Shown here: positions 1 to 63,881 of the stretch, piece after piece
How the letters are laid out: every line of letters starts with the position of its first letter
Numbering within the stretch: position 1 is the stretch's first letter
From: Lingula anatina
Taxonomy: Eukaryota; Animalia; Brachiopoda
Length of the DNA: 64,000 bases
Assembly (NCBI GenBank): GCA_051362555.1
Contig: CM120643.1
Coordinates: forward strand, 9,238,001 to 9,302,000
Reading direction: 5' to 3'
Program-made: the position numbers and the translations under genes
The notes under the pieces: model-generated
The model's input: only the letters and a program-made list of their open reading frames with translations
What the model was told of the DNA's origin: nothing
Database searches by the model: none

Positions 1-663
1 GTAAATAATACACCATTCTTCCACAGTTTAAGTATCATGACCAGCATATAATCAATGCTGTGGTTTCTATCTTACAAATACATTAAAAAATAAGAATAAC
101 CCACATCCATCTGTTAGAAGTCTGACTCAGTCATAAATTTGAATTGTGCATAATATGACAACTTGGCGATCAATATAACTGTTCAGTACCTTTCACTTCA
201 TTCATTAATAATGTATAATATTACAAAGATGACAAATATGTTTTATAGACTTCAGGCACATAATGTGTAGTACATATACGATGTGTGTAACTTTTGGTAT
301 GTCAGCTCCTTTGCCTCACTGTGTTTTGTATGGTATTTGTTGGTGAATAAAACATCAAATGTCACTGTTAAAAAAACTAGTCCTCTTTTTTTTTTCTTTT
401 ATCATTTGACTATAAAAAGTGCTTTTAGTTTTATTCTAAAAGCATAAATTTGAAGCACCACTGTATGTTACAGATACAGAAGGTAACTTGAATATGAAGG
501 ACTAATTTTTTTTTTTTTTTTTTTTTTTGGGGGGGGGGGGGGGTCCACCTAATAAAGACATGTTTTTGAAAAGTTACAGAAAGAAACAGGCTATTAGTAT
601 TAGTATGACCCCACAAAATTTAATCTGGGTAGTGAAGTGATACTGCCTGACTTTGTGACTTAC

Positions 664-1594
664 CTCATACCCTTTCTCAAGAAGTAGTTCTGCTAAGTAT
701 GACCCATCCTACAAAAGAAAGAAAAATAGAAAATATGTTCAAAAATGATGAAATAATTTGTGAGTGTCACTTGTGCTTACATGAAATTAAAGTCACAATA
801 ATGAGGGCTATATACATACGGAGATTTCACTTGGAAAGTTTCCATCTAAACATTATATAATTTCATTGTTTAATCTATGCTGCTACAAGGACCACACCCG
901 AGTTAAGTGTCGGATAAATTCTCTCAGTTTGTTGTTACATTTAAATAACAAACAAGGGCGCGTCACTCTAATCAAGACCCCAAGTTGTCGAAATTTTGTG
1001 ACTTCGATTTTGAAAAAATAAAAACAATCAATAAAAAGCTGCTGCTTGCACAGGGTTTTTAGATGGTATGCAGCGTGGTTACATTTGTGAGTAAGTCCAC
1101 GGCTAAGTTTATAACTTAGGGCAAATTGGAAGCCATAGCTTGCATAATAAATTAAGATTTTTGATCCATTTAATTTGAGTGCATGGGCACGACACGAATG
1201 CAAAATGAACCCTCGATCAAACAATCGTAAGAGAAAAAACGCCGATTCTGTGAACAATGATGATTATCGAAACCTATTGCTTTCAGCGTTATTTCGAATT
1301 TTGTAGTCGGTCTACAGTAGCGTGGTCCCTGAATAAAGCAAGGTAAGAGATGAGGGGGGTATGTGGGCCTACCACATAGTACTACGGTAGCAGCACAGCC
1401 CATCTCCCTCATCTCATCAATATTTCATAACACTTTTAGCACCTCCGCATCTTTAAACCGATGAAGATCAACCTCAAGTCGCGTTCATCAAAGTTCGAGT
1501 AAATTACCTGTCCTGTGATTCCCGTCAGCAGAGCCACTTTTCGACCTCTTTTAGGCATCTTCGCTTTTGGTGGTGAACAATTCTCGCTCGCCAT
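664..1594 (-). CDS. GMDS: GDP-mannose 4,6-dehydratase, exons 1-2 (gene continues beyond the left edge)
   Basis: Exon 1 is 1594-1508 (MASENCSPPKAKMPKRGRKVALLTGITGQ, donor GTAATT). Exon 2 is 708-664 (DGSYLAELLLEKGYE, TAG acceptor, GTAAGT donor). Joined, they give the GMDS Rossmann signature KVALLTGITGQDGSYLAELLL. Not in the ORF track. Confidence 0.93.
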
Positions 1595-1965
1595 TTTTAC
1601 CGGCTTGGGCTAGCAGACACGCGTCACGTGGTGAACTACCCCGGAGTGTGATTGGCTGAGGTTGACCTGAACTTGGATTGCCTGACGTCACGGTGTAAAC
1701 AAATAAAATGTGCTCTGGGCAGCGTGCGTTGGAGCTGCCTGCCCGGGCAAGATGGGCTGACGCATTCCCTGACATTGGATAATCCCCGTAAATGAAAACG
1801 CTGCAGCCAATCACAAACCAACCCTGGGGTGTCGTCATGAATATCAAATGAGCATTTCGGGCATGTTGAGGCCACTCTAGCGTCACTCACTGTATATAAA
1901 TATATAGCATCCGTAGTAAGATATGCTCCATCATTATAATTTTACTTCGCGACACCAACATCACT
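1595..1965. promoter_or_regulatory. Bidirectional promoter between GMDS and the SAM-protease gene
   Basis: 371 bp separate the divergent ATGs. It is GC-richer than its surroundings. E-box TCACGTG 1624-1630, CCAAT/ATTGG at 1651, 1774 and 1807, perfect CRE TGACGTCA 1683-1690, TATATAAA 1893-1900 facing the + gene. Confidence 0.7.
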
Positions 1966-4900
1966 ATGAACTATGATGGTGTTAGGAATTTTCTACGGAG
2001 TTTGGATCTGTCACAGTATTTTGAGATGTTCAAGACGAAGGGATATGAACGGGAGTCCGATCTGGTCGATCTAGATGAGAAGGATTTGGATGATCTGTTG
2101 ATTACCAACCCAGAGCATAGGAGATTGGTGCTAGTTGCGTGTAAGTTAATTTCACTTTTCTCAGTACACATGGCCCACATTTATATATATAACTATATAC
2201 CGGCAAGTTAGCTTTAGGATGATTTCAAATACTAATATGTCACTCAGGACGTTGACTGTATAAAGAGACGATAAGTGCATGATCCATACTCGGCAACTTC
2301 CGCATTTTTACATATTTTTCTCACATCCCCCTCAACTTTGACTATGTAGCTTTCTTCTGTCTAAAACATTTTTTTCGTCTGTTAAACAGGATTTTGGTTG
2401 ATAGGACTTATATTTTTGACACAAACAGTCAATTCGATGTACACACGGAAAAAGAGCAATTCATCACAATCATTTTACTTGCCAAATTGCAGCAGAAATT
2501 CTAATACGGGAGTGATAAACGCGCACGCGATAATTGAATTTTATGGATAAATAAATTTTTTGTCTATTGTAATAATTTGAGCTCAATTCAGGCCCTAGAT
2601 TTCGACTCAATCTTCTACTATCCATTGTGAGGGCTAATCCACTATTTTAAAAATTCATTAAAAAAAAAAAATTTTTTTCGTTGTTTTACTATACATGAAA
2701 TAGAACAACCTGAGGCACCCCCGCTCTTATCTCTAAAATCTAACTTTTACCAATGATATCTCTCTCCGAAGTTTAAAGATTCAAAGATAAAACCAATTGA
2801 AAAAAATTGTCTTGAAATATAGGCCTAATAGGCACGAAAATCATCCAGCGCTAAAATATCGACGTTTTTTTTTTTCCTTGCCAGAGCTTGTTTAGAAATT
2901 TTAGTAAAATTCGCTTAGTAGGCCTGCTAAAATTGTATCAGTAGGCTCAGATGTTGTATGATTTTTATAAAAAAAACACAGTGGTGTCTTTTCAATCTAG
3001 CCTATAAAAACAAAATTATATATTATATTATATTACTGGTATTATAGATAACAAAACAATGCTTTGAAATTCTCCCTGATTCGACATATCTTTAACGCAT
3101 TAGAGTGTAAGCGTGCACGGGCATACATGTACAAATATTTTGATCACGTGCACATTCTTTACTTATCTACTACATAACAGGTTAATATTTGACTTACCAT
3201 TTTAAACAAGTATAAATTATAACCAGTTATTCCCTCTTGTGGTCATCAAAGTATACACATATTTTCAATTTTCTCAAATTCCCACTCCAGCTCAAGGTCT
3301 TGAAATTTCACCCGAGGGAGCTTTACTGGACTTTCTGGTGGCCAATGGGTTAGAGCATTACTACGAGAACTTTCTCCACGAGCACCGTGACATGGACATG
3401 ATTGAGAATATAGACACCACACAGGCGAGGTCCTTCCAAGAACTAGAGATCACACTGCCGGGACATAGAAAGCGTCTCCACAGGGCAGGTAGGCCCGGGA
3501 AGGGGAATGAAAGGGCGGGGGAGGGGCGGTTTAGAGAGAGGAGGTTGAGTCCCAAACTAGCCCAGCTTTAAATATTGAATATACATGATATAACCCAATT
3601 TTATTTAAGAAATAGACGAATACACTTTTACTGAAACCCAGGCTATATAAGTAATATTACACAAGATATTTTTGGTTGCTAGGGAGATTTTGGACATTGA
3701 TAACAAACTAATGTTGAACAAAATCTAAAACCTCATTTAATAAATGTACGTTATTTTGTTTTTGTATAGAACAGGTGTTTTGAATTTGGTGTTGGAGCTC
3801 ACAGCCTTGCAAAAATTATATTTCACACACCAAAGCGTCATGCATCATTTTGAAATCTGTCATAATTCTAAAAAAATTATATTTACATATATATTTCAAA
3901 AATGCTTTATTTTCTTCAGTATATTTTCTATGCGTGTTTTATTTTGCCTCTCCCGTATCAGTATGGAATACCCTGAATGAGAAAATATACTATTCACCAT
4001 TCTATAAATTATAACACAATGCGGATAAGATAGCTGGAATTGGAATTATGCCATTCGCATAAATGCATAAATGAATATAGTCTGAGACCTTGGGAAATTA
4101 TTACCAAGAATGCAGACTCGGTAGTATTGACGTGTGACTCATTATGCATGGGTCAGGTTTGCAGAGAAGTTTCACCAATCTCTGTCCGTAGAAAAAAGGA
4201 GTCATAGGTAAAAATGACTCAGTCATGACTGTTCCGATTACGTCAGCGATAATGTATGTTTAGCCAGCAAGGAGTTTCAATACATTGCACATATTGTGTA
4301 TATATTGTATACATATTTAATATACTGTCATTTGGTTGAAGAGACAGATTAGCAAATATTAAAAGATTTCGCTTCATATATGCACAGTAGCAATTTAGAT
4401 AGTTGAAAAACTAACCAATTAATTAATTAACCAATCAATTGATAAGTTAGTATAATTTCCCAATGTCATTTATCTGTCCCCATCTTTAACAATAACTTTT
4501 TAAATTTATTTGCTACTTGTGATAGCAATTGAAAATCAGTTACTGTATGCACGTTTTTACACATCTACAATATTTCTTTTTTTAATCAAATTCCTTTAGT
4601 GACACAGCTGCGAAAGCGGCGGAAACTAAGCGCGGAGGCAGAAGACCCCGTGGCCACTGGGTACTGGGGTAAACCGCGACCCCTAGCGGACGCCAAGAAC
4701 GACTTTCTTTGCATTCACGCTGCTATTAAAGGGGTTGGTGATGCAGACTACGAACAGATGCTTGGTACGTTGGATTTTTTCGTCATTTAATGTAATTTAA
4801 AAATCTTATGCTGTAGCTGACCTGTCTTTTACTTTTTCACTTTTCTTACGTTTGTTAAACCGAGACCCGTAGCTGTGTTTTACATGAAAGCCGTTCACAT

Positions 4901-6844
4901 GCATATTTAAACGGCTGAAAATTACCATGTATTTAGCAGGCATTTTCATCAGTTAATTTTAAAGTGAATTTTCCCCATAATCACCATGAGTATATAATTG
5001 TCGCGGTTAAATTTAATAATGGATTTCAAACAGTGACATATTTCATGAAACGGGCCACAAAATAAATACCATATTTTTTCACTAACTTTCTCATTTCGCA
5101 GAGTTTATGGTGGATTCCGGAAGTGACGTCGTAACGGTGGAAGAGAGCACGCTGTCACAGCTACGGCTGGAGCACCTGGGCACGGTAAAGAGCCATGGTG
5201 TACACGCCACGAAGGAGAAACAACTCTACAGGGCCATGCTAAGGATAGGACGGGAAGAGATTGAGATAGAGGTATATAAAATTATTATTATTATTTTTTT
5301 TTTATTTTTTTTTTTTTTTGACAATGATATTGATTCCAAAAAATTCCTATGTCTTCAAAACAAATGGGTGAAATAAGATATCACTTTCGCAAATGCTTGG
5401 ATATGTTGTTTGTTTGAGGCTTGCGAAAAGCGGATATACACTGATGCTCATAAGTTAAGCAACACCCCGATTTTTTCAAAAGTTTCTTCTATCATGATCA
5501 TTATTTCATTTGTTGGTGGGATTATGCATATTTCTTTCATATTTTATAAATAACTTATTCAAGTTGAATATTCCGGATAAAGAAATACACCACACAGCTT
5601 ATTGTAATAATCAAAATGACTTTATTAACCAAACGGTACTAAAATATGCCAAACCATATGTGTCAAAAAAGTATGCGCACACAGCAAAAAGTACGTGCTG
5701 ATTAAAACATGTGGGATACCGCGCTGTTGCAGAGCGTCTTGCACGGACCATGCTTTCTGGATGGACGCATAGTCCTGCACCAAAATGATTTTTCTTTCTG
5801 GATTTGCTTGAATGTGTGATTGTATGCACCCCAATGGTATTTCGTCTCTGTATTGTTGACCAGGGCGCCTCCCTTGAATGACGTACGGTGCCATTTTTCA
5901 TTGTTTGGCTGAAATGAACTGGTCCTGTTGGCATAATCGAACTAGATATCCTTATCTCTTGCGTCGGTTAATATTGGTCTACCAGAAAGAGGCTTGTCCA
6001 ATACATGATGAGTTTGGCGCCATTTTGCTACCAGCTTGGACACTTGATTTGGTGCTGCTTTTTTGTTGCCTTGCAATCTGTCTCTTTGGCACCCCAGCAC
6101 GATGGCTTCCCATTTTTTGCCATCTGATTACCTCGTTGAGTCCTCTTCTAACCATTTGTTGGTCCAAAATAACAAATTGTGCCCATGAAACTAGCCAAAC
6201 TGGAAGCTCCTCATGGCATGGCCAAACTGTGTTTTTCGCAAGTGGCACCCCCATTGCATATTCTATCGTGTCCAACAGTAAATAGTACTCTAATGTCACG
6301 GTCCAGTAAGTCACAGTAAAAACAACAGAAATATCTAGCTATTGTACAAATTTTGCCTCAATAAAAATTTTGGTTGCAGAGAAAATCGAGAAATAAGAAA
6401 GTGTTGCTTAACTTATGAGCATCAGTGTATATAAATCCGAAACTGAAATAATCTAAAACTAGTTTACAAATTATTATACTCAATGAGCTCAAATTCGGAT
6501 ATATTTCGTACAATTTAAGGTTTCATATCTCCGGTCTTAGATTTTTCGAACAAAAAAAGTAGTTTCCAACAAAAGTTCTGTGTAACAAAATTTTTAATGG
6601 CTTTCAGGTAATGGGAGAGACTTACAACTCCTTAGGAAGCCAAGTAATCCGCCATTTCAGACACTATATCAACGGCAATAGACACATTTGGCTGAAAGGG
6701 ACAAGGGACGATCCAATTGCCGCCAAACCACCGCCATTATTGTCTTCCTCATCATCAACGTCATCAACATCTCCTTCATCATCACCGCCTGCGGGTGTTA
6801 CGTCACCATCCTCAACTCTGACGTCACCATCCAAATCAACATAA
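1966..6844 (+). CDS. Tandem-SAM-domain protein fused to a clan AA (retropepsin-like) aspartic protease, 314 aa
   Basis: Exons 1966-2140, 3291-3488, 4600-4764, 5102-5271, 6608-6844 (945 nt; GT-AG; phases 1,1,1,0). SAM1: VRNFLRSLDLSQYFEMFKTKGY...LDDLLITNPEHRRLVL. SAM2: LLDFLVANGLEHYYENF...FQELEITLPGHRKRL. Protease: EFMVDSGSDVVTV...LSQLRL...YRAMLRIG...NSLGSQVIRHF. Ser/Thr/Pro-rich tail. Confidence 0.85.
5439..6427 (-). mobile_element. Internally deleted Tc1-family DNA transposon in intron 4 of the SAM-protease gene
   Basis: Perfect 27-bp TIRs CACTGATGCTCATAAGTTAAGCAACAC (5439-5465, 6401-6427) flanked by TA. Broken minus-strand transposase pieces: MVRRGL...GVPKRQIARQ, DKPLSGRPILTDARDKDI, YRDEIPL...IILVQDYASIQKA. 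Confidence 0.9.
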
Positions 6845-8204
6845 ACTTCTTTTAGATAAGATCACAAAGTTTCAATGTTTAACCCATTACAAGCATTGTG
6901 CAAGTTCAAATAAGATTCATATTTTTATATTTAGGAAAATCCACTAAGGCTTTTGCCATTATGGTCAAGATTTCGGTGCTTGAACCTGCAGTGCTATTTG
7001 CGATCAATTTTAGTCGTTATTGACTGAGTAAAAATCCTGTGATCTTAGAATCCAACCGTCAAAAAATCTTCAAGGAAAAATGTTTAGTGGCACATTATTG
7101 TCTTCCGAAAAAATTTTAATAGGTATTTCACAAAAATGAAATCACACCAAAAAGTATGTTATTTTAATTGACACTTTTGTGACTATGCAATACTCTGTAT
7201 CCAAGAGATACGGATTATTTATGGATATTATCCTTGATAGCGACTGCTAGTGGAAATGTGGTTTTTAGGAAGAACACATACCAAAATATGTTCTTAGTTA
7301 AAGACAGGATTGATGCTTTTATTTTTATATGGTCACACCAAATTTAGTGTGAATTATCGATCATTCTTTTTTTGTCGAACAGTCGTATTGAAAGATCAAC
7401 CCTCCTCCGCCTTCAACAAAAAAACCATAAAATAAACATGTGATATATATTGTGAGGTTTCCTTTGAAATTCACAAAGACAATTATCCGTATCTAACAAA
7501 ATAGGGGGCTGTTGCGTCAGATGGGGTGAGGAATGGGGGGGGGGGGTAAACCGTCAGAATTTGACTGCTTCAGGCCAGTAGCCCCCTCTCCCCCAAAACA
7601 AGCAGGCTCCCAATTAAATCCTTTACAGTTCTTTTATTAAAATATGCTTTATTTAACTTTTCTTAATGATCTCATTTAGGTAATATTTATAATATATATA
7701 TTTTAGTCGCACAAGTAAATGTGTAAAGTTGAAAATATCGTGAAACTGTATATTGTGTCAGTTGAAGAGACATAAATGGTAGAAAAGTGGAATCGCAAAG
7801 TTGGCGCAATGCTTTTGTCCTTTTTACTGGCTTTTTGCTAGCTTTATATTACTAGCTTATAATGCTATTGCCAGTTAGAAACAAGACCATTCAATGTTGA
7901 TTTTAAAAGATTCAATAAAGACATTCTATGCCATTTTAGTTGTCATTTCTTGCTTTTTTTTCAGTTTACCTTGGAATATGACCTTTTTACCTACTTTGCC
8001 GCCCTTCAAATTCCCTGCTCTCTCAACTGGCATACTTCTGATACTTGCATGTTTACAACAATTAAACTGGTTTGTGTTGCGCGTATTAAATTTTTCACTT
8101 CCAGTTGTACTATGACATCACAAGTTGAAAACGTCCGTCACGTTGTCAATAGCAGCGATGTAGCTAATCGATTTCTTGTGTAAACAAAAACTCTTCTTTG
8201 AATA

Positions 8205-8540
8205 ATGACAAGTCGCGGTAAAGATGTAAGGGGACCTCGATCAGATGACCACGATCGCATAACCAAGCAAAAACCTCTACAGGACGCACATAGCCTAAAA
8301 AGGGACGATAAAGCACCAGGATTTAAGAAAGTTTTACACAGTGAAGATACACCAAGAGATGAACTTCCCAGTACGTCTCAAGACGCCCCCTCACAATGTT
8401 TCCAGGAAAATGCTGAAAATGAAGGGACTGCAAATGAAACGCCATCTGGCGGCGATGGAGATTCACATCAGCGCCACAATGATGGTTTTCCGTTTAATTC
8501 ATTCGAGGAGATGTTAGACTTCATCTTGAATGGAATCTAA
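8205..8540 (+). CDS. Possible single-exon orphan gene, 111 aa, hydrophilic with a C-terminal amphipathic helix
   Basis: Intact ATG-to-stop ORF with coding-like composition. CRE-like TGACATCA at 8113 upstream, ATTAAA at 8659 downstream. No recognisable family. Confidence 0.35.
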   Translation: MTSRGKDVRGPRSDDHDRITKQKPLQDAHSLKRDDKAPGFKKVLHSEDTPRDELPSTSQDAPSQCFQENAENEGTANETPSGGDGDSHQRHNDGFPFNSFEEMLDFILNGI

Positions 8541-9068
8541 CCTTTAGATACTCTATTTTTCGAAATCTCGAAGTAATACATCTACATACTTCCAAGGAAC
8601 TGTTTATAAGATTGTATATAAACTGCATTGTATGTGTGTCTTTCAAATTTATTTCTGTATTAAATCATTGTAAATATTAAAATTAGAATTAAGTTTATTG
8701 GTCTACTGACATATGCGTATCTGCTTTTAAACAACATACTTTACATCAGCTTCACCGAAGACCCTTAAATAAATATAACAGTAAATATATCAACTCTTGT
8801 TTCGTCTTTTTTCCCCTTGGCTGCTGTAACATTTACGCAGTAGATCCCTGGTACTGTACATAGCGACATAGGCCCAATACGCCGAGGACAGGTTTACATT
8901 AATTGTCGATTTATCACTCGCGTAGGCCTAAACTCTTCCTTGGGAAAGTCCTTTTTCAATTTCAACTTGAATAATTTTACCCTTGTCCTAGACCCCTAGA
9001 CTTTTCAGTAACAATAAATCAATTATAATTGAAACAAGGTGCCTCTTGCTTATGAAAATTTGTCTTTA

Positions 9069-9119
9069 TGACGTCACCCCTCACATCCAAAATAGTTTCT
9101 AGATTCCTGTATGACGTCA
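9069..9119 (+). promoter_or_regulatory. Pair of perfect CRE palindromes upstream of the speriolin-like gene
   Basis: TGACGTCA at 9069-9076 and 9112-9119, about 95-145 bp before the ATG at 9214. Confidence 0.6.
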
Positions 9120-9213
9120 TAATGCTTACGCTGTCACAGCGTTACTTGGATACAAGCAGTTGCCGCGCAGGCAGATGATCTCTGCTACTCTTCCATGATA
9201 AAGCAAATGTAAA

Positions 9214-12200
9214 ATGACTGAGGAGAGCATAGAAACACCGCGGAAACAAATACAAAGCACGGACGACGAGAACTTTTTGTCTGCGGTCTCCGTGGCAAAT
9301 GCAACAGAAGGCGGTAAGGAAACTGATATCTTGAGAGACGATGGGAACCCGTCGGATGCGTATGGTGAAAGCAGCGATTGCGTAGAATTGGACACCCCAG
9401 ACTTAAAGAAACAAACCAGTGGGGAGAATGAAGAGATCGGTAATTTGGAAAATGTTGGAGAGGAGACGAAAGACCTGACCGCTATTTCCTCTGGAACACC
9501 GTCTCCAGTCCATATGTCAGAGCTTGACATAACAGCCACAGAAAGTGAGGGATCGCCCAATATTCCAACGGTAAACAGTCCCCATTTGATGAATGAACTT
9601 TCATCCGAGGCAATTCAGTCTGGTGGCTCAAGTTCGTTTATCGATGATTCTGAGGAAAGAGCGTCGACTTTACACATGGACGACCTGAAATCGGAGACTT
9701 TTCAGCCAGCAAACGAAGATGGGATAAAGGTCGGTGATCCAGTTGCAACAAGTACCCCAGTATCTGCCAAACCTCAAAATCTGGAAGATGAAAATGAAGG
9801 AGAATCCCCTGTAAGTGCTGCGATTCCGACGTTGCACGCAAGCGACTTGAATGATGAATTCGCCACTGATGTTGATCGCTCTGACGGCTCAAGCTCTTTT
9901 CCAGCGACTCCTAATCTAACTTCGGACAAATTATCCGACAGTTCTGTAGAAGGGATAAATGTCGGTCCCCCAGTTGCAACAAGTACCCCAGTGGCTGCCA
10001 AACTTAAAAGTCTGGAAGACGAAAATGAAGTAAAATCCCCTTTAAGTACCTCCATTCCAACGATGCACGCTAGCGACTTGAATGATGAATTTGCCACTGA
10101 TGATGATCGTTCTGACGGTTCAAGCTCCTTTCCAGCGACTCCTAATCCGACACCAGACAAATTATCCGATGGTTCTGGAGAAAGCGTTTCTACTTTACAC
10201 ACGGACGATCTAAAGTTGGAGACACCTCAGTCATCGGCCTTTGGTGAGATAAATATTGGCCCTCCCGTTGCCATGAGCACGCCCGTAGCTAAACGACCTG
10301 ATCGTGAGACGGAAACGCGCTCTCCTTCTGAAGTGATGGGCAAAGTCCAGAGAGTGCTGGAGTCTTTGACCGACGACACGCCAATTCCTTCAGTCGCTGA
10401 TGTGCACATTGATGAGAAGAAAACGACAACAGATCAAGACACTCCACTTGATAAAAGCGACCATTCACAAGGGCATGCGCAGCTCAACAACTTGCCTGAA
10501 AATATCCCAGAATCATCTAATTTTGCTCAGGGTGAATTGGAATGCTTGCCCCTAGAAGAGTCCATTGAATACCCCACAAATGCGTTGGTTATGAAAGACC
10601 ATGACGAACAGAAAAATATTTCAGTGGAAAACCTTGCTGCGTCTGCCAGCAATTTAACACCACCATTTCATGAAATACCCGAATTCATGAAAACAAACAG
10701 CAGCCACGAGAATGAAAGGAACGCAAAAAATCAGGAACACGAACGCGTTAAAGATGAAAATTCTCAGATTTGCAGGGAAAGCTACCCTGAATTCCTGAAA
10801 AGAGAAAACGCTCGCCTTCAAGCAGAAAACAAAGCTTTAGCTGAACAAATTGAGCTGAGAAAGAAGAATGCTGGGCTAAAAGCAGCCACCTTAGTCCTAC
10901 AAATAATGGAATGCTTTAACAGTGATACTGATACCGGTGAGTTAGCATAATAATTTTCTGTGAAAGAAAATCCCTCCAGATAAAGCTTTGCCGAGCATGG
11001 TTTCCACTCAAAACTGTCCAACATCTAAAGCATTTATTAAAACAGAATTCATTACAAAAAGCAGTATCGTATCTAGTGCCATGTGTGTATAATTCGTTAA
11101 TTTTTCCCGTTTCTGATATCGATATAGATACCATAAATGAACTGCACAAAAGCAACTTCGAATCCTTCATTATTCGTCGTAAAACCAGCGTGACAGGAAT
11201 GGTAGTCCGCTAGGAACTGTAGTCCATTCTCCATTACTTGCTGCAGGTGACATTTGTTCCATATACTAACCCTATTACTCCGGCTAACCCTAACCTGAAC
11301 TTAACATTTGGGACCCGGGCTTCCATGCCTAGGCCCACCATTCCTGCCACACAGTCATAATGTATGACTCACAAAATATAATTAATGCACCTTACAGTTG
11401 ACAAGGCAGTGTTCCCTGGAATGCGACAGAAGGTTCGTGACATAATTCCTCTCTCAGAGCCAAACCAGCTCTTCCTCCAGAGCGTCAGAGGCAGAACTAG
11501 GGATCTCAGCAAAGGAGGGTGTGATGAGTACTTGGGCAGCTTTCACGCATGTACAGGTAAAAATCCTTTTACTTTACCTGTCTTTTTATCCTTTTCAATT
11601 GATGGTATTACATGAGCACATTTCGAGTTCCAAATTGAAGCATCTATTGGTTTTGATTGATTGATTGATTTGCAGAGCAAATGGAGATCCACCGTTTCTC
11701 TTTTTTCTAAAGATATAAGATATTAAGATTAAAATATAAAACCTAAAGAAATAGCTGACATTTTTTTTACAACATTTAAAATCAAATTTTTCCAAAACGC
11801 TACCCACAAATTACACGCAGGAATGATGAATCAGTACTAATACATCAACAGCACTTATGCAGAACTGATTTTTTATTGAAGGGTTTCAATTTTATTATTT
11901 CAGAGTCAATAACCAAAGCAGGGACTCCTCTTTTCAAAATAGCAGACGTCGCTCCATCAAGGCGTCTAATCGGAGAAATTGCTTTCCAGCTGGACCGACG
12001 TATCATGGGTTACGTATTCAGCGGCAAGCCAATGAAAGGCGCTCCTCGCACTCGTTTCTATGGTTATAACGTGGGCAACCTGCAAGACCTCATTATCATA
12101 GAATCTATAGACCCCATAACGTCGAGACTAGACACAGAAAAGAAGTACGCTTTGAACTATCGCTTAGAGTATATTTTCCGAAGTCTTGGTCCGCTGGGTT

Positions 12201-12433
12201 ACAGGAAAGATTTCCACCCACGTTTCACCGCCGAGCTTGTTAACAAATATGGCGTGATTGGTTACCCACCGAGACGCAAATATCAATGCGCCGAGGAGTG
12301 GAACCAACCAGATGCCCTGCGTGATTTTGCCACAAGAATAGCCCCCAGCTCAAAATTGAAAAACGTGTTGGTTTTGATTGACTGTCTGGCATTACTTGCA
12401 AAAGATGACGGCGGACCATTATTCTTATTTTAA
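9214..12433 (+). CDS. Speriolin/SPATC1-like protein, 803 aa, with long acidic N-terminal extension
   Basis: Exons 9214-10936, 11398-11556, 11904-12433 (phases 1,1; 2412 nt). C-terminus RLIGEIAFQLDRRIMGYVF...RFYGYNVGNL...LVNKYGVI...DCLALLAKDDGGPLFLF matches the speriolin C-terminal domain. Coiled coil LKRENARLQAENKALAEQIELRKKNAGLK resembles the speriolin N-terminal region. Confidence 0.85.
9661..10292 (+). repeat. Coding tandem repeat (231 bp / 77 aa) within speriolin-like exon 1
   Basis: Units start at 9721 (GIKVGDPVATSTPV...) and 9952 (GINVGPPVATSTPV...), with related partial units STLHxDDLKxET...PVAxSTPV on either side. Confidence 0.9.
11189..11351. mobile_element. Small MITE-like element with internal TAACCC-like repeats
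   Basis: Imperfect terminal inverted repeats GTGACAGGAATGGT / ACCATTCCTGCCAC. No clean TSD. Confidence 0.4.
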
Positions 12434-15474: not shown

Positions 15475-15760
15475 CGTTCCCTAGATAAGTTGCCCCTCCC
15501 CCGCCAACAGAACGCTCCGAGATATTCAACGGCCCAGTGGAGTTGGCAGTGGAGTTCTCGCACGCGGCATTCCATAGGGTGTTCAGCTGTTAATGCTGAG
15601 ACGGTTTTTGCCACAATAGGTCTTTGAGACGCCGGTCGGATCAGTAGCGAGGACAGTCGGTGGCAGTTGTTAAAGGGAGCCCAGCCAGATAAAGATAGGA
15701 GGTTGATAAGCGTTCATCTTCTTTGGACAGTGCATCTTCGTTTAAAGTCCCAAAAGAGTC

Positions 15761-18700
15761 ATGGCGACTAGTGCTGAGGATATCCGCTCCCCAGGGCTGT
15801 ACCGGGCCTTGCTGGCTGAAATGTTAGGTGTCCTTTTTCTCGTGCTCGTCGCGTGCGGCGCCTGCACCAACGTGAAGGCCCAGCAGAATCTCATCACCAT
15901 CTCTGTGTGTTTTGGCCTTAGTGTGGCCACCTTGGTGTGGTGTATTGCTAACGTAAGCGGGGGACACATCAACCCGGCTGTCACCATCGGGTTTCTCGTC
16001 ACCCGCAAAATCAGCATCGTACGTGCTCTCTTCTACTTTGTGAGCCAGCTTGTGGGCGGCATTGCGGGTGCGGCTATACTGATGGGACTTACCCCCACGG
16101 AGTACAGGGCTTCGCTAGGAACAACCCAGCTTACCCAGGGAGTCTCCGTGGGACAGGGGTTCGGCATCGAGTTTATGGCCACGTTCGTGCTGGTGTTCAC
16201 TGTGTTTGCCACCTGCGACTCCAATAGAAATGATCTCAGCGGTTCTGGACCTCTGGCGATTGGCTTGTCCGTGGCTATGTGCCACCTGTGGGCGGTAAGT
16301 CCTGCTTGCCTGTCTGTTTGTTTGCCTGCCTGAATATGTTTGTTTGTTTGTTTGTTTGTTTGTTTGACTTACTGGCTGACTGAAAGACCGAATGACTGAC
16401 GTATTGATTGTCTGTGTGTCCGTCTGTCTGTTTTGAGGCCTGCCTCAATATATGTCCGTTTGTCTGTTTGTCTGACTTTCTGGGTGATTATAAGTCCAAG
16501 ATTGTCTGTGTATCCGGCTATCTGTCTGCCCTGTTTGCATGTCGGTCGTAATGTAAATGTTTTCTCTCGGAGATAATGTAAAAACTAATCATTTCTAGCT
16601 TAGTAAATTATACTCAGACCCCCTCAACGTCCAGTCCTGGACACAAACAAGTCTTATCAAAATTCAATGTAAATATCATTAATGATCGTTATTAAAATGA
16701 CAATGGAACCGAATCATCTCTTAGTATTCCAGGCATTTTAAATGGATTTAAGAATGACATCGAACGTTTATCTGTTGAAACTTAAAACTGAGCGACGATA
16801 TGTTCCTAATTGGCCTGTTTTTCCACAACATTCTATTTTCATGATAAACATCTTATTCGGACGTGCCTAGTATTTCATTGCGTCACGTGTGCTTGGGCGT
16901 GTCATTATATTTGAGACGTATAAAATACACGTTTGGAGAAATCCAAAACAACATGAGTCTTATTTCTGTGCCTCTGTAATCCCCATTTATGATCGCGAGG
17001 CCTATCTAAGAATGTCCAGGCGCGATATCCTGGTTATTAAGTCATCAAGTCATATTCTGACCAAGGTTTACACAAAAGTTCTAGGATTTATTTAAGAGCA
17101 AAACCGCTTGGTTGCACCCCCTTTATTAAAACCATCTATCATAACACTGCGTTTTATTGAACAAAACGCTACAGTATGTATTTTGACAATTGTTTATAAT
17201 AAATTGTTTACTTGATGAGTGTAGCTCTAAAACGCGTTTTGTTGATACCGATTAGAACGCGTCTTCGAAGTGTGTATCTTTACCCATCGCCGTGTAGTGC
17301 GACCCACCCATTTAAAGCATCGAGATCAGTAATTCACGTGTATTAAGATAAGTAGTGTATACCCTGAGATTCACTGTGCTGTTTGCAACACCCCTTGACC
17401 AAACATACACGATACGGTTTGCTATATGGGTATGCAGGTAGTAATGGCGAGTTTTCAGTAGACGTTGATACACAGGGTGTATGTCAGTGTTGTCACTGGA
17501 ACTAGATGGCATTATAATTTTTAAAACTGTATTATTAACATTAGAAGAAATGACAGTTCAAAACTGTTATCATCAAAAAAGGTAGACATCCATCGCCCCC
17601 GTATCACTAATATGAGGAAGCATTCGTGAGGAAAGCGATTCAAAAGGGCGTGATAATGACACGTGCTAAGTGTACTGCTTCATCATAATTGGTCAAAATC
17701 ACCACTTCACTTGTGTGTACATATTTATTTACAGTAGAACACCTCCTGCTCATATATAAAAATCAGTAGTCTGTTGGCTTATTGTCAAATTTCCTGGAGT
17801 ATTTTATTTTTTCAATTTAGCAACTCTGTTGCAAAAATAGGCCTTTAATATACAGACTTGACATTTAATATGGAATATTTTTTCCAAATCATTTTTCATC
17901 AGTTTTTTTCCTATTTTACTGACTGATAAATGAAAATAAGGATTAAAATCGTGTTCTAATAACTTTTAATCATCTCTTTGATGTCATTGTGACATCAGTT
18001 CATTAATGGAATTCACCAGAGAAGCAAACAAAAACACATTGCCTTTTCTACGTCATACGGCAACCATTAAATGAGATATTTTAGATCTCCATATTTTCCA
18101 AATTATTGTCTGTAAAAGAGTTACACGCTCCACAAAGGACCCTCATGTCAGTGTCTAGTCACAGTAACAGTCGCTGTTACGCCTGACCTCTTCTGGCTGC
18201 TACCAGCGCTCTCAAGCGGCAAGGCATTCCTTGGGATATGGTTTTAGAGTTCAATCTGGAATAACATTCCAGGCATCGGTCGAAATCTGTCCAATTTGGC
18301 TCAGTTTTGTTGTAGGACATGTAGGCCATTCATCTGGCGAGTAATGGCCTACCCACATATTGTCTACGTGGTTCAAATATGGCGGTTTTGATGACCAAGG
18401 TAGCTGTTCATTCCCTTGGTTCTCTAAGTAATCTGTTATTAAAAGTGCTCTGTGTGAACCGGCAATCCCACCCTACAACCTAAAATTGTTCTTAAGGTGC
18501 CCCCTATCAAATGATAGTCAAGTGGTTCCCAGATTATTCCTTTATTTAATCTGGTTCAGGTTTTCGTCGATGACTGCCATTGATGTTTTGGCACCAATGT
18601 GGTATCCACTTCAAATACTGACGCTGTTAATGACCTAAGTCACTTTAGAGGCGGCACACACTTCGTCGTTGGCCTCTTCTGGATGTCTGTAAACTCTGTT

Positions 18701-50700: not shown

Positions 50701-53231
50701 TTGATCAATTCTGTTCAAATGCCATTTATTATCCCACTTTTACTCCATTGCCACAAACTAATATCTATAGCACCTTACCTTGCTCCCACATATAAATCTT
50801 CCTCTTCCTCCTCCTCCTCATCGGTATCAGGCAGAGTATGCAGCAGCTCCTGGCGCTCTAAGAAACCCAGCAACTGAATCTCATCGCCCCCAAGGTCACC
50901 CTGGTCAAAGTTCACATTGTGCAGCTGCCTTGCTGTCTGCTCAGCCCAGCCTGCTGGTGCTGCCAGCTCGTCCTCGTCGCTGTCTCCATCCCTCTCCTTG
51001 CGACACGTTTGCTCACTTTCCTCCAGGTCCTGGGGGATCTCAAACTGAAAGCTGTTCTCGTCATTGTCAAAGTTCGACGTCGATGTCTGCCTAGACACAT
51101 TGGACTGCTCAAAGCTGTGGCTCGAGGAGAACTCCTCGAACCTGAAATCTAAATTGTTAAAACTGACGGCAGGATCGAGCTGCAGCACATCCTGGATGTC
51201 ATGTTCTCTGGAAACAAAGTCTATGTTACCCCTCACCCTAGGGCAATGACCCCCACCAAGGTCATCCACCTCTCCATGACCTCCATCTGACCCTGACATT
51301 GTCCACTCACTTGACCCGGGGTCAAGGTCAAAGTCAAGAAAGTCTGTATCTGGACTGTAAAAGGGGGAGGACTGGTAGCTCTCCGAATTTGAGGACGCCT
51401 GTGCCTCGTGTGCATCGTTTAAATTATTTTGGTGCTGCTCCTCATAGAAATTGTTTTTCCTTTTGTTAGCTATACTGCTGGGAATCTTTGGCATGGGGCT
51501 ATTGCACGTGCAGGAGTGCACACAGCCAGCGGGGCAAGGGAAGGCACGAGGCCTGGCACTAGCACTGGCACCACTACAACTGCTACCACTATTTACAATA
51601 TTGCAAGACAATTGCTGGGAGTCACTAGGGACAGTGGCACCAGCACCGACCACCATTAGCTCTCCGCGTTGATGTCTAGTCCGAGGTAAACCTTCATCTT
51701 CAGAACTACACGACGCTGCGTCGTCCTCTCCTAGACCAATATCACCGTTCCTGAAAGACAGCGGCAGATTGAGTGGCTGCTGAGGAAACCCCTCATCAGA
51801 AGAGGAATCGTCATTCAAGCCAGACTGGTCTACTGAAAGGGAGTATGCAGTCCTGTAACTAGCCGAATTCACCAATCCGTTACACACTTGACTAGAAATG
51901 TCTGTGTCAATAAAATCCAGCACATCATTTTCCAGGTTCTGAGCAGTGCTACTGGTATTACTTGGTTCCCCTGCACTGCCACCAGAATCACCACCATTAC
52001 TACAGTGAACACTTGTTCTGGTGCTACTGACACTGGTGGCTTGTTTGTCAGGTGGGTCTAAACCATTAGCATTACACACATGGCACTGTGCATTGCCATG
52101 TGTCACCTGCACACCTTGAATACCACACCTGTCACAGCCATGTGCATCCCTTGGTGACACGCTAGCACCTGTTGTACCTGTCACTTGTTCCCTCTTATTG
52201 TAACTGCCATGGTCTGTAGGACCATTCAAGGTGGCATACAGAGTTCCAGATCCTCTACTCCGTAAATTGCTCTCTTTATCCGACCAGCTACCATGGAAGT
52301 CATGGTCTGAAGGATGCCCAGTTTTATGACTAAGAGATGCAGTTTCCTGTGAAGTCAGTACAGATCTGTGGTTATTTTCATCTGAAGTGGGTATTTCCCC
52401 ATGTCCTATGTGCGTAAACATATGAGTAGTTGTTAAATCAGTATTCATATTATCATTATCTGACCCGTCAGTCGAAGGCCTCACCACAGTCTGTGTCACA
52501 CTTGTATTTTTTCTACCTTTAAAAATTTGGCCACCTTTTGAAGAATTTGACTTGCATTTTGTATCTTCTGAATTCACAGTATTAACAGGTATGTTCGCAA
52601 CATTTGAGTTTCGTTCCAATTCTTCCTCACCACCATCTATGGCACAGCTGTGTCTTTCAGAACCAAGGCTTTGCATCGAGGTTTCTCCACCATTAACAGT
52701 TGCAAAAGAGGATTTTGGCATTATAGGTTTGTCGGACTGGCCTTCACCTTGACCTGTATTAGAGTGACCTACATCCTGGTCAATATCCCCCTGCCCAGTC
52801 ACTTGACCAAAAGAATGAGATATCACCTGGATGTTATTCCTTCTCACTGAGGTCTCTGTACCACTGGGTCCTTCCTGTACACGTAAATGTTCTAACAAGT
52901 GTAAGTTTGATCTAAAATAGTTCTCCATATCATCCCCAGGTGTCTCCACATTCACTCCAAGAGAATCCTCCTGACTTACTTCCCCATTTAGCGCGTATGT
53001 TCCATGTACAGCACTGGGGTCAACATCACTGCTGAAGTAATCCCAGTCCACAGCACCAAGGTCGCCAAAGGCACTTGAATGTCTGGGCTCCGACTGAGCC
53101 ACTGGTCCAAACTGGGAGCAATGAGTCAATGTGGCGGGTGTCCCAGCCTTCCTCCTGCCTGGCTCCAGTGTCTGCTGGTCTCTGCTTAGGCTGCTGGTTC
53201 TAGACTGTGACATGGCCAGTCCTCCTTCCAT
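33048..53231 (-). CDS. Uncharacterised 1125-aa protein: disordered acidic N-terminus plus C39/papain-like cysteine-peptidase domain
   Basis: Coding exons 53231-50779, 46179-46089, 45016-44894, 44252-44141, 43577-43446, 42902-42792, 41260-41081, 33223-33048 (3378 nt; all GT-AG; phases consistent). Motifs KQIGTSACGPTAVINVL, YLLSRSVAGTT, AVPLATLNLQ, DAWHHQMVYGV, IYLTNP, WRTLNVLGQ, HVTIPAVYKPGITLF. A non-coding first exon probably ends at 53845. Confidence 0.85.
36774..36999. mobile_element. PIF/Harbinger-like MITE, copy 2
   Basis: Same core as the copy at 25455 (AGATCGACCTAACTCCCTGGGGGTTCACGCTAAA...GATAGATCGATCTAAAA). TAA TSD. Confidence 0.8.
39639..39894. mobile_element. Related Harbinger-like palindromic MITE (different subfamily)
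   Basis: Termini GACCCCATTCCCATACCTA / TAGGTATGGGAATGAGGTC. Long inverted arms CTAAATTGCATTCAGCTTAAGCGGCT / AGCCGCTTAAGCTGAATGCAGTTTAG. Flanks ATG/ATA. Confidence 0.7.
40274..40555. repeat. Intronic tandem duplication, about 142-bp unit, 2 copies
   Basis: CATTTTGTTGT.AAATATTC.ACAATAAAACATCCAGG begins at 40274 and again at 40416. Confidence 0.8.
40790..41080 (-). repeat. Two diverged duplicates of the 3' half and donor of C39-like exon 41260-41081
   Basis: WSMNLDLRPLIKADSRWRALNVF|GTGAGA and WSLYFDFRPLLIQADPRWR..|GTAAGC, versus the true exon WSVDCDLRPLLTQADPRWRTLNVL|GTGAGA. Copies are separated by (GT)n/poly-G tracts. Confidence 0.85.
41221..42352. repeat. Minisatellite, 91-bp unit x12 plus a degenerate 13th, containing a splice acceptor and 40 nt of exon
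   Basis: TCTTCAGGGACTAGCT(C/T)TAGAGG(G/A)TTGGTTAGATAGATACCTGGAATGTAGGAAATATT... recurs at 41221, 41312, ... 42222. Confidence 0.97.
42520..42693. mobile_element. Harbinger-like MITE
   Basis: Termini GGCCCCAGTTTCACAAAAAA / TTTTTTCGTGAAACTGGAGC, inner arms TCCCTGGTT / AGCCAGGGA. Confidence 0.6.
45866..46033. mobile_element. MITE with CAGG-type TIRs and a 5-bp TSD (hAT5-like)
   Basis: CAGACCGTAGCCAG ... CTGGCTACGGGCCTG, flanked by AACAT on both sides. Confidence 0.8.
46908..47117. mobile_element. PIF/Harbinger-like MITE, copy 3
   Basis: Same family as the copies at 25455 and 36774. ATA TSD. Confidence 0.8.
47264..50412. mobile_element. Non-autonomous Ginger1-like foldback element (3.15 kb)
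   Basis: CCGG|TGTACCATGAAAATCTGACTCCC ... GGGAGTCAGATTTTCATGTTACA|CCGG: TGT..ACA ends with a CCGG target duplication. Inverted subterminal arrays of ~183-bp units (about 3 left, 5 right). No transposase ORF. Confidence 0.8.
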
Positions 53232-53844
53232 TACATGGAGACATTAGTTTAGGGACCTGGAAATAGGTTATAAAGAATATCAATTTTCATTTGTAATTAA
53301 TAAACATCTTTAGGCCAACCTCACATCTGTTATTTGGTCCACTATGTTTGCATATCAGTAGGATTAGCTGCACCCAGTAAGAAGCCATCAAAATATATCT
53401 GAAACTCAAATTTTGTTACTTAGCTGACAGGTTTTCTCAATTAAGTGTGATGCACGATGTCTAGTTTTTACTATCAACCTTCACAATTTATACAGCGGAA
53501 TTCCCCTTCTTTAATTTCTGTCCAAAATACCCCCAAAACACCAATACCATGTTTTTTCACATTATCATATTGTGTTTGCTGAGGTTCAAAAAGGTTTTCC
53601 TGGTCAATTTTTGTTCAAAATTCTGCCTTCCTGATGTGAGCCCTCATTTCTCTTCTCCAACCCCTTACCCTCGTATAATCATCTTTGCAATAATAAAATT
53701 GGCCTAGTTCTTGAAACGCTGAATCAAACGCCATATAAATGGTAGCCTTAACAAAATTTTCAATTAAATGACAAAATTATACATCGCCACAATTATTTGT
53801 TTATCCACTTTGTTTAACATCTTACTAGAAACACCACAGTTTAC

Positions 53845-58072: not shown

Positions 58073-63881
<5,809 letters not shown>

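Follow-up and report, generated by a model that had tools for sequence, protein, structure and literature searches.

An old animal gene family in Lingula anatina joins a tandem of SAM domains to a retropepsin-type domain with a predicted homodimeric form

Results

A five-exon gene encodes two SAM domains and a protease domain

The gene studied here lies on the forward strand of a 64,000-nucleotide stretch of the Lingula anatina genome (contig CM120643.1, positions 9,238,001 to 9,302,000; hereafter the window), and we call it the SAM-SAM-protease gene after its two N-terminal SAM domains and its C-terminal aspartic protease domain. A first-pass annotation of the window had drawn it as five exons encoding a protein of 314 residues, and had proposed that SAM assembly, as in SARM1, may switch on the protease, possibly in immunity or stress. 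The gene structure was borne out. The five exons (Table 1) have GT-AG boundaries throughout, with intron phases 1, 1, 1 and 0, and join into an open reading frame (ORF) of 945 nt that encodes 314 amino acids plus a stop, with no internal stops. The GC content is 43-56% in the exons and 32-36% in the introns. A search with exon 4 led to the RefSeq model of the same gene (P0001, LOC106159430), which also has 314 aa. By eye, the window protein differs from P0001 at three residues, and the identical three sites vary among RNA reads. P0001 was the sequence used in all whole-protein analyses.

RNA evidence came from the reads of eight runs labelled Lingula anatina, with a threshold of three reads per joint and an exon depth of about 8 at most. 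Three of the four exon joints were supported. The joint of exons 1 and 2 (2140/3291) was crossed by 6 reads with 5 different starts, and that of exons 3 and 4 (4764/5102) by 5 reads from two runs. The joint of exons 4 and 5 sits in a skipped repeat, where 3 + 4 loose read ends at 6606 carried the letters of the end of exon 4. Among 40 listed read variants (133 further ones lie beyond these), 8 of the 11 exonic ones were synonymous. We place the SAM domains and the protease on one transcript because of the RefSeq model and because orthologues have them in single ORFs, on contigs of 1.2-2.3 kb and in a sponge transcript set. The SAM-SAM-protease gene is a real, spliced and expressed host gene.

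Table 1. Features of the SAM-SAM-protease gene and of its surroundings, in window positions
Feature	Position	Strand	Description
Exon 1	1966..2140	+	SAM1, aa 1-58; acidic head surface with D32 and D40 conserved; tail degenerate, E50 at the Gly site
Exon 2	3291..3488	+	SAM2, aa 59-124; basic tail PGHRKR 115-120 conserved
Exon 3	4600..4764	+	end of SAM2 helix 5 with RKRRK; variable linker; protease strands 1-2 (conserved GxWxxP, FL)
Exon 4	5102..5271	+	catalytic core FMVDSGSD (D184 codon 5113-5115); flap region
Exon 5	6608..6844	+	SLG psi-loop partner 244-246; predicted dimer strands 253-266; disordered Ser/Pro tail 270-314; stop
Likely 3' UTR	6845..7800	+	sparse same-strand reads at 7328-7528 and 7596-7802; AATAAA at 7431 and 7914
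Promoter region	1595..1965	.	short; common to the SAM-SAM-protease gene and the GDP-mannose 4,6-dehydratase gene, head-to-head
Putative promoter motifs	1625; 1683; 1651/1774/1807; 1893	.	E-box-like; CRE-like; CCAAT boxes; TATATAA (from sequence)
GDP-mannose 4,6-dehydratase gene, first two exons	1594-1506, 708-660	-	head-to-head; start codons 372 bases apart
DNA-transposon remnant	5434-6432		about 1 kb, in intron 4; perfect 32-nt terminal inverted repeats; longest ORF without Pfam match
Acidic repeat-rich 582-aa ORF, then Speriolin_C ORF	9202-12433	+	first ORF without Pfam match; Speriolin_C E 9e-36; possibly one gene
Aquaporin exon	15746-16333	+	MIP, E 1e-49
Low-complexity 822-aa open frame	50775-53243	-	Ser/Asp-rich; no Pfam match
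Subtilase exon	62169-62525	+	Peptidase_S8, E 2e-5

On the Pfam level, the expected domains were recovered in part. Both SAM domains passed their cut-offs (SAM_1, E 3e-10 for exon 1 and 5e-9 for exon 2), while exon 4 gave a weak match to Asp_protease_2 (E 0.007) that stays under the Pfam cut-off; NCBIfam gave 0 matches for the five exons. The motifs themselves are in place: FMVDSGS at residues 181-187 is intact, SLG stands at 244-246, and the basic patch RKRRK at 129-133. The patch, which had been read as a linker between the SAM domains and the protease, belongs to the end of SAM2 helix 5 and is kept in only 20 of 42 aligned family members.

The gene belongs to an old animal family

A search with the protease region yielded 27 family proteins out of 72 candidates, and nearly all the full-length ones carry SAM domains. 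An exhaustive search of 1.84 billion representatives yielded 119 matches at E<=0.001 and 60 at 1e-10. Three long matches, P0061, P0124 and P0135, turned out to be unrelated repeat proteins and were removed before the motif counts. The members seen by name come from two Oscarella sponges, anemones, corals, many molluscs, two nemerteans, the annelid Ridgeia, two hemichordates, a crinoid and amphioxus. The same architecture, looked for in other invertebrates, thus extends from sponges to amphioxus. No vertebrate, arthropod or nematode was among the member names seen (30 clusters looked up and the names of the 27-protein search), which does not imply absence. Identity in the protease domain is 50-64% among well-covered named bilaterian matches.

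The databases name these proteins 'SAM-containing' or 'ANKS1A-like', and a precomputed protease domain was found in none of the 27. Pfam scans of family members matched only SAM and aspartic protease models, and the Asp_protease_2 cut-off was passed by only 3 of the 32 proteins scanned. The retropepsin domain is absent from database annotation because the protease scores under this cut-off. At the sequence level, the catalytic Asp, whose conservation in orthologues the first-pass annotation had made a touchstone, is invariant in all 42 aligned members, in the form D-S/T-G-S-D/E in 41 of them and as DSASD in one. Out of 135 family matches, 109 include the motif region, with D-S/T-G in 102 of these, and the other 26 span only exon 3 or the last exon. 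Two groups of variants stood out. In P0044, P0052, P0080, P0092 and P0096 (one of them named from the anemone Actinia), D-S/T-A-S replaces D-S/T-G-S. P0097, P0148 and P0149 represent a relative without SAM domains, 166-196 aa long, in which Leu stands for the catalytic Gly and whose branch is very long; it is likely an inactive offshoot. The C-terminal tails also vary: in mollusc orthologues (e.g. P0010, P0014, P0017 and P0020) they differ widely and can be as long as 436 residues, and those of bivalve orthologues have two short conserved blocks close to the end.

The intron structure inside the protease is conserved as well. In 9 of 10 other loci, all from metagenomes, the acceptor that precedes the catalytic exon coincides in position and phase, and the donor after it is shared in 7 of the 9 informative ones. 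Across the protease, locus L001 is intronless and L002 is missing the last intron, which may reflect intron loss or RNA-derived contigs. For the best-resolved pair, the catalytic exon showed dN 0.02 vs dS 0.62, that is, purifying selection; dN/dS was saturated for most of the 45 pairs and is informative for close pairs only. A tree of 34 selected rows with trimmed tails united each of the molluscs, hemichordates, amphioxus and sponges at full or nearly full support, and it split the cnidarians into two groups; 9 of its 31 branches are open, the deep ones are unresolved, and the origin of the family is not placeable on it. Because of the shared intron positions, the lineage-wise tree and the purifying selection on the catalytic exon, the SAM-SAM-protease gene is an old, inherited animal host gene.

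Several broader searches gave no further relatives. With one narrow pattern each, 0 of 15 matches in prokaryote genomes and 0 of 17 in viral contigs were confirmed as relatives, and an Atlas feature search with the whole protein gave no usable match. A profile search for family forms of 393-2000 aa passed 0 of 7,986 scored candidates. The last search is insensitive, since members of that length exist in other searches, and it is silent on other fusions.

The C-terminal domain has a predicted retropepsin fold

The AlphaFold2 model of P0001 has a mean pLDDT of 80, with a disordered tail at 270-314. In this model the C-terminal domain has the retropepsin fold, as had been supposed. For residues 139-267 the best protease match in the PDB was APRc of Rickettsia conorii (5c9b; Z 10.8, rmsd 3.0, 110 aligned, 17% identity), practically level with the EIAV protease (Z 10.4, rmsd 2.9, 99 aligned); the predicted protease also matched the Toxoplasma Ddi1 protease domain (Z 9.1, rmsd 3.1, 101 aligned). 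In the Atlas, it was closest to small stand-alone prokaryotic clan AA proteases (TM 0.77-0.83). Retropepsins are defined by a motif hydrophobic-hydrophobic-D-S/T-G-S/T/A (PMC4140852), and MVDSGS at 182-187 conforms to it, once per chain. The catalytic segment is among the most conserved parts of the protein. A DDI-type assignment found no match: neither the DDI-type Pfam model PF09668 nor a ubiquitin Pfam model matched among the 32 + 24 family proteins scanned, and the family protease profile retrieved no Ddi1 chain from the PDB at E<=10. The protein is likely intracellular, judging by its sequence, because it starts directly with SAM1.

The SAM pair resembles those of ANKS1 and Caskin proteins

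Over both SAM domains, the family profile matched AIDA-1, ANKS1A and the Caskins at E 4e-20 to 1e-17, with AIDA-1 the best (3.6e-20), and SARM1 at E 2e-6. The acidic head of SAM1 is kept (D32 in 41/42 members, D40 in 39/42), and so is the basic tail of SAM2 (G116 in 36/42, H117 in 41/42, R120 in 42/42). The tail of SAM1 is degenerate: Gly is found in 2/42 and Asp or Glu in 22/42, the median net charge is 0 and the sequence is not conserved. The spacing of SAM1 and SAM2 is fixed at 22 residues in 33 of the 42 members. On the Lingula SAM2 helix, the sequence contains two basic clusters.

The SAM pair of a nemertean orthologue was modelled at pLDDT 94.7 and pTM 0.85. The predicted pair does not overlay the closed Caskin1 (rmsd 12.3-12.5) and AIDA-1 (13.1) tandems or the SARM1 tandem (12.3-12.5), and its geometry also differs from that of Caskin2 (9.8). 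The linker between its two SAM domains falls short of the Caskin2 and AIDA-1 ones by 6-8 residues (8 vs AIDA-1). Because of the non-closed shape of the model and the shorter linker, the SAM head and tail are predicted not to meet within one chain. Among the solved folds closest to SAM1 are SAM domains from co-crystals with Eph receptors (SAMD5, Z 12.4; SASH1, Z 10.0). We treat Eph-receptor-type SAM domains as a lead for binding partners, nothing more.

A homodimer is predicted with paired catalytic loops

Two copies of residues 1-270 were folded without a family alignment, together with three controls. The homodimer score was 0.55, vs 0.00 for the best of the controls, and the dimer runs shared at least 89% of their contacts at a pLDDT of at least 83. 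The same mark was reached by 21/30 solved homodimers and 0/23 single chains from microbes, and by 17/29 and 0/30 from eukaryotes. The best residue pairs of the predicted dimer join the catalytic loops (184-184 and 185-185) and the strand 254-259, so the pairing of two DSG loops proposed earlier is seen in the model. SAM pairing between chains is predicted in the same model: the interface lists of both copies hold residues 25-28, 32, 39-40 and 43-44 of the SAM1 head, 114-117 and 119-120 of the SAM2 tail, and residues 75-78. The two-copy model is symmetric, with both surfaces used in both chains. The 14 polar SAM interface positions were more conserved than the pool of 78 (0.72 vs 0.46), and 0 of 20,000 random sets reached 0.72. 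Overall, the model predicts a homodimer with paired catalytic Asp residues and a paired Ser/Thr grip.

Weighing a proposed reciprocal SAM clamp

Taken together, the models and alignments moderately favour the following reading: the old animal family combines a SAM tandem with an intact retropepsin, and its product is likely an intracellular homodimeric protease whose halves are clamped by reciprocal SAM1-head/SAM2-tail contacts. The SAM pair is predicted to be rigid and not to close on itself; D184 is predicted to meet D184 while the SAM head and tail residues touch across chains. The SAM clamp would then supply dimerisation strength to a protease with one Asp per chain, and the reciprocal contacts would join two half-sites into an active enzyme. 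Assembly would end at the closed dimer because the SAM1 tail is degenerate. In Caskin2, the swapped dimer uses contacts between SAM1 Asp and SAM2 Lys, the Gly of the SAM1 tail serves higher oligomers, and the mutation G537D in that tail was predicted and used to block oligomers while the dimer was kept (PMC4994250). By alignment, the SAM-SAM-protease family has the dimer surfaces and resembles this oligomer-blocked mutant. Its SAM1 is without the Gly required for Caskin2 oligomers, so the data agree more with a reciprocal dimer clamp than with filaments or a ring. The acidic head of SAM2 would be left free and may bind a partner or substrate through the latter's basic SAM tail. The protease might also be switched in a regulated way; none of the findings links the gene to immunity or stress.

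A number of observations weigh against this reading. Catalysis is argued from the residues and the predicted structure. The second motif is S/T/C-[ILV]-G in 40/42 members, with a polar first residue in place of the canonical hydrophobic-hydrophobic-Gly, and the catalytic Gly is lost (to Ala, Leu or Arg) in 7 of the 109 motif-bearing matches. The acidic character of the SAM2 head (median net charge -6) leaves room for other assemblies, and the linker between SAM2 and the protease ranges from 10 to 41 residues across the 42 members, which argues against tight allosteric coupling. The joint of exons 2 and 3 is absent from the joints listed in all eight RNA runs at their low depth and three-read threshold. 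As for the dimer, among eukaryotic dimers lacking an older solved relative only 1/7 reached the mark, so the pass may reflect solved retropepsin and Caskin2 dimers that the predictor had learned. All 25 best listed pairs lie in the protease; for the SAM1 head and the SAM2 tail, the pairing is deduced from the list of interface residues. Moreover, the model holds two copies only, and an open chain through the same surfaces lies outside its reach. The conservation test is inflated by G26, D40 and H117, interface residues that belong to the consensus of SAM domains in general.

Four other explanations compete with the clamp, and the same data bear on all of them. The SAM pairs could form an open chain, a ring or a condensate, as in SARM1 or Caskin1, with the higher assembly activating the protease after a signal. 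The SAM1-head and SAM2-tail surfaces predicted to meet between chains could also give an open head-to-tail chain, and SAM multimerisation is essential for SARM1 (PMC10252437). We consider such an assembly unlikely, given a SAM1 tail that is near neutral, not conserved and mostly devoid of its Gly, a SAM profile at least 12 orders of magnitude nearer to AIDA-1 and Caskin than to SARM1, a SAM model that fails to overlay the SARM1 tandem, a symmetric two-copy model that engages both surfaces in both chains, and a protein without a sensor domain. The SARM1-type oligomer of the first-pass annotation is not supported, and the SAM pair is ANKS1/Caskin-like. Also unlikely, in our judgement, is an AIDA-1-like pair in which the SAM domains close on one another, conceal a basic nuclear-import signal and only target the enzyme, with the protease dimerising alone like Ddi1. 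AIDA-1 is the best sequence match and buries a nuclear localisation signal in SAM2 helix 5 (PMC10252437), the spacing between the SAM domains is fixed while the link to the protease is free, and the Lingula helix has its two basic clusters; nevertheless, the linker is 8 residues shorter than in AIDA-1, the confident monomer model is not closed, and the second basic cluster is kept in only 20/42 members.

The remaining two explanations concern the protease itself. It might be a dimer of retropepsin fold that serves as a scaffold or binds peptides and whose catalytic role is small or nil, as the non-canonical start of the second motif, the substituted Gly in members including the Actinia protein and the lack of an Arg directly after the second-motif Gly would allow. 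Against this, the Asp is invariant and D-S/T-G nearly so from sponges to amphioxus, the catalytic segment is among the best conserved in the protein, and the predicted dimer pairs the catalytic Asp residues; we regard this explanation as very unlikely. Least credible is that the protease is that of a retroelement, or was domesticated recently, and has been wrongly joined to a SAM gene unrelated to it. Retroviral proteases do have the same fold, but the explanation is largely refuted by the shared acceptor and donor of the catalytic exon, by tree rows that group by animal lineage, by full-length members in single ORFs and by the lack of any confirmed relative on viral contigs in the pattern search. 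A simple pattern scan of window positions 1-12000 found no reverse transcriptase, zinc-knuckle or integrase-type motifs, and no Pfam family of these kinds matched in eight neighbouring ORFs. The earlier view of a host gene, made from its introns and its surroundings, therefore holds.

Neighbourhood of the gene

The promoter attributed to the gene does contain a TATA motif, and the region is shared with the divergent gene for GDP-mannose 4,6-dehydratase. Synteny with the dehydratase gene was seen in none of 10 loci, most of which are too short to tell. Diverged copies of the transposon in intron 4, coming from elsewhere, were abundant in some RNA runs.

Discussion

The SAM-SAM-protease is best understood next to the systems that it resembles in part. 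In a survey of 2009, the non-viral single-domain families of eukaryotes numbered three: DDI, NIX-1 and SASPase (PMC2642776). Like DDI1/2, NIX-1/NRIP3 and SASPase/ASPRV1, the SAM-SAM-protease is encoded by a host gene, has a retropepsin fold and provides a single catalytic Asp from each chain; in contrast to them, it has tandem SAM domains, not ubiquitin-like domains or a propeptide. APRc (RC1339) of R. conorii, its best structural match, shares the catalytic motif (PMC4140852). APRc is membrane-anchored and has been shown to be active (PMC4140852), whereas the SAM-SAM-protease starts with a SAM domain, has introns and is a predicted enzyme. A bacterial origin of the protease domain is a lead only, because no close prokaryotic relative was confirmed in the pattern search.

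On the SAM side, Caskin2 (4is7), Caskin1 (3sei) and AIDA-1/ANKS1B (2kiv) have the same acidic SAM1 head and basic SAM2 tail containing Gly-His, and the swapped dimer of Caskin2 (PMC4994250) resembles the dimer predicted for the SAM-SAM-protease. Those proteins are non-enzymatic scaffolds, whereas the SAM-SAM-protease family has a shorter linker and a different chain geometry, and has lost the SAM1 tail used in Caskin oligomers. Unlike ANKS1 and Caskin proteins, and despite the 'ANKS1A-like' names, its members have no ankyrin repeats. SARM1 (ARM-SAM-SAM-TIR) likewise carries tandem SAM domains N-terminal to an enzyme that needs self-association (PMC10252437). It differs in a weak SAM match, another tandem geometry and a different enzyme, and the SAM-SAM-protease is without the ARM sensor.

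The family appears to be undescribed, as had been suggested. In the literature searched, with most subscription journals, MEROPS, InterPro and supplements outside its scope, we found no description of a SAM-SAM-retropepsin family and no paper for six family gene ids. In the available text, the word 'SAM' is absent from the 2009 survey (PMC2642776), and a 2023 review of multi-SAM proteins contains neither 'protease' nor 'peptidase' (PMC10252437). Two literature leads were set aside: a Lymnaea phosphopeptide assigned to an 'ankyrin repeat and SAM' protein (PMC10850466) occurs in none of the fetched family proteins, and a Biomphalaria lead (PMC13619432) concerns another gene.

The SAM-SAM-protease thus apparently represents a further, undescribed animal retropepsin family with a new domain partner, added to the three described families of cellular single-domain retropepsins in animals (PMC2642776). 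If the SAM clamp is real, it would be a natural one-Asp protease that carries its own dimerisation device, and control of an aspartic protease by SAM pairing would be directly testable in Nematostella, snails, oysters and amphioxus. A bolder proposal, speculative and rather doubtful as it stands, is that this fourth cellular HIV-protease-like family has served since early animals as a proximity-gated signalling protease. Its active site would be built by SAM-SAM pairing, and further SAM proteins, with Eph-receptor-type tails among the candidates, would compete for the SAM heads and in this way switch the enzyme or bring substrates to it. If true, this would be caspase-like logic made from an aspartic protease.

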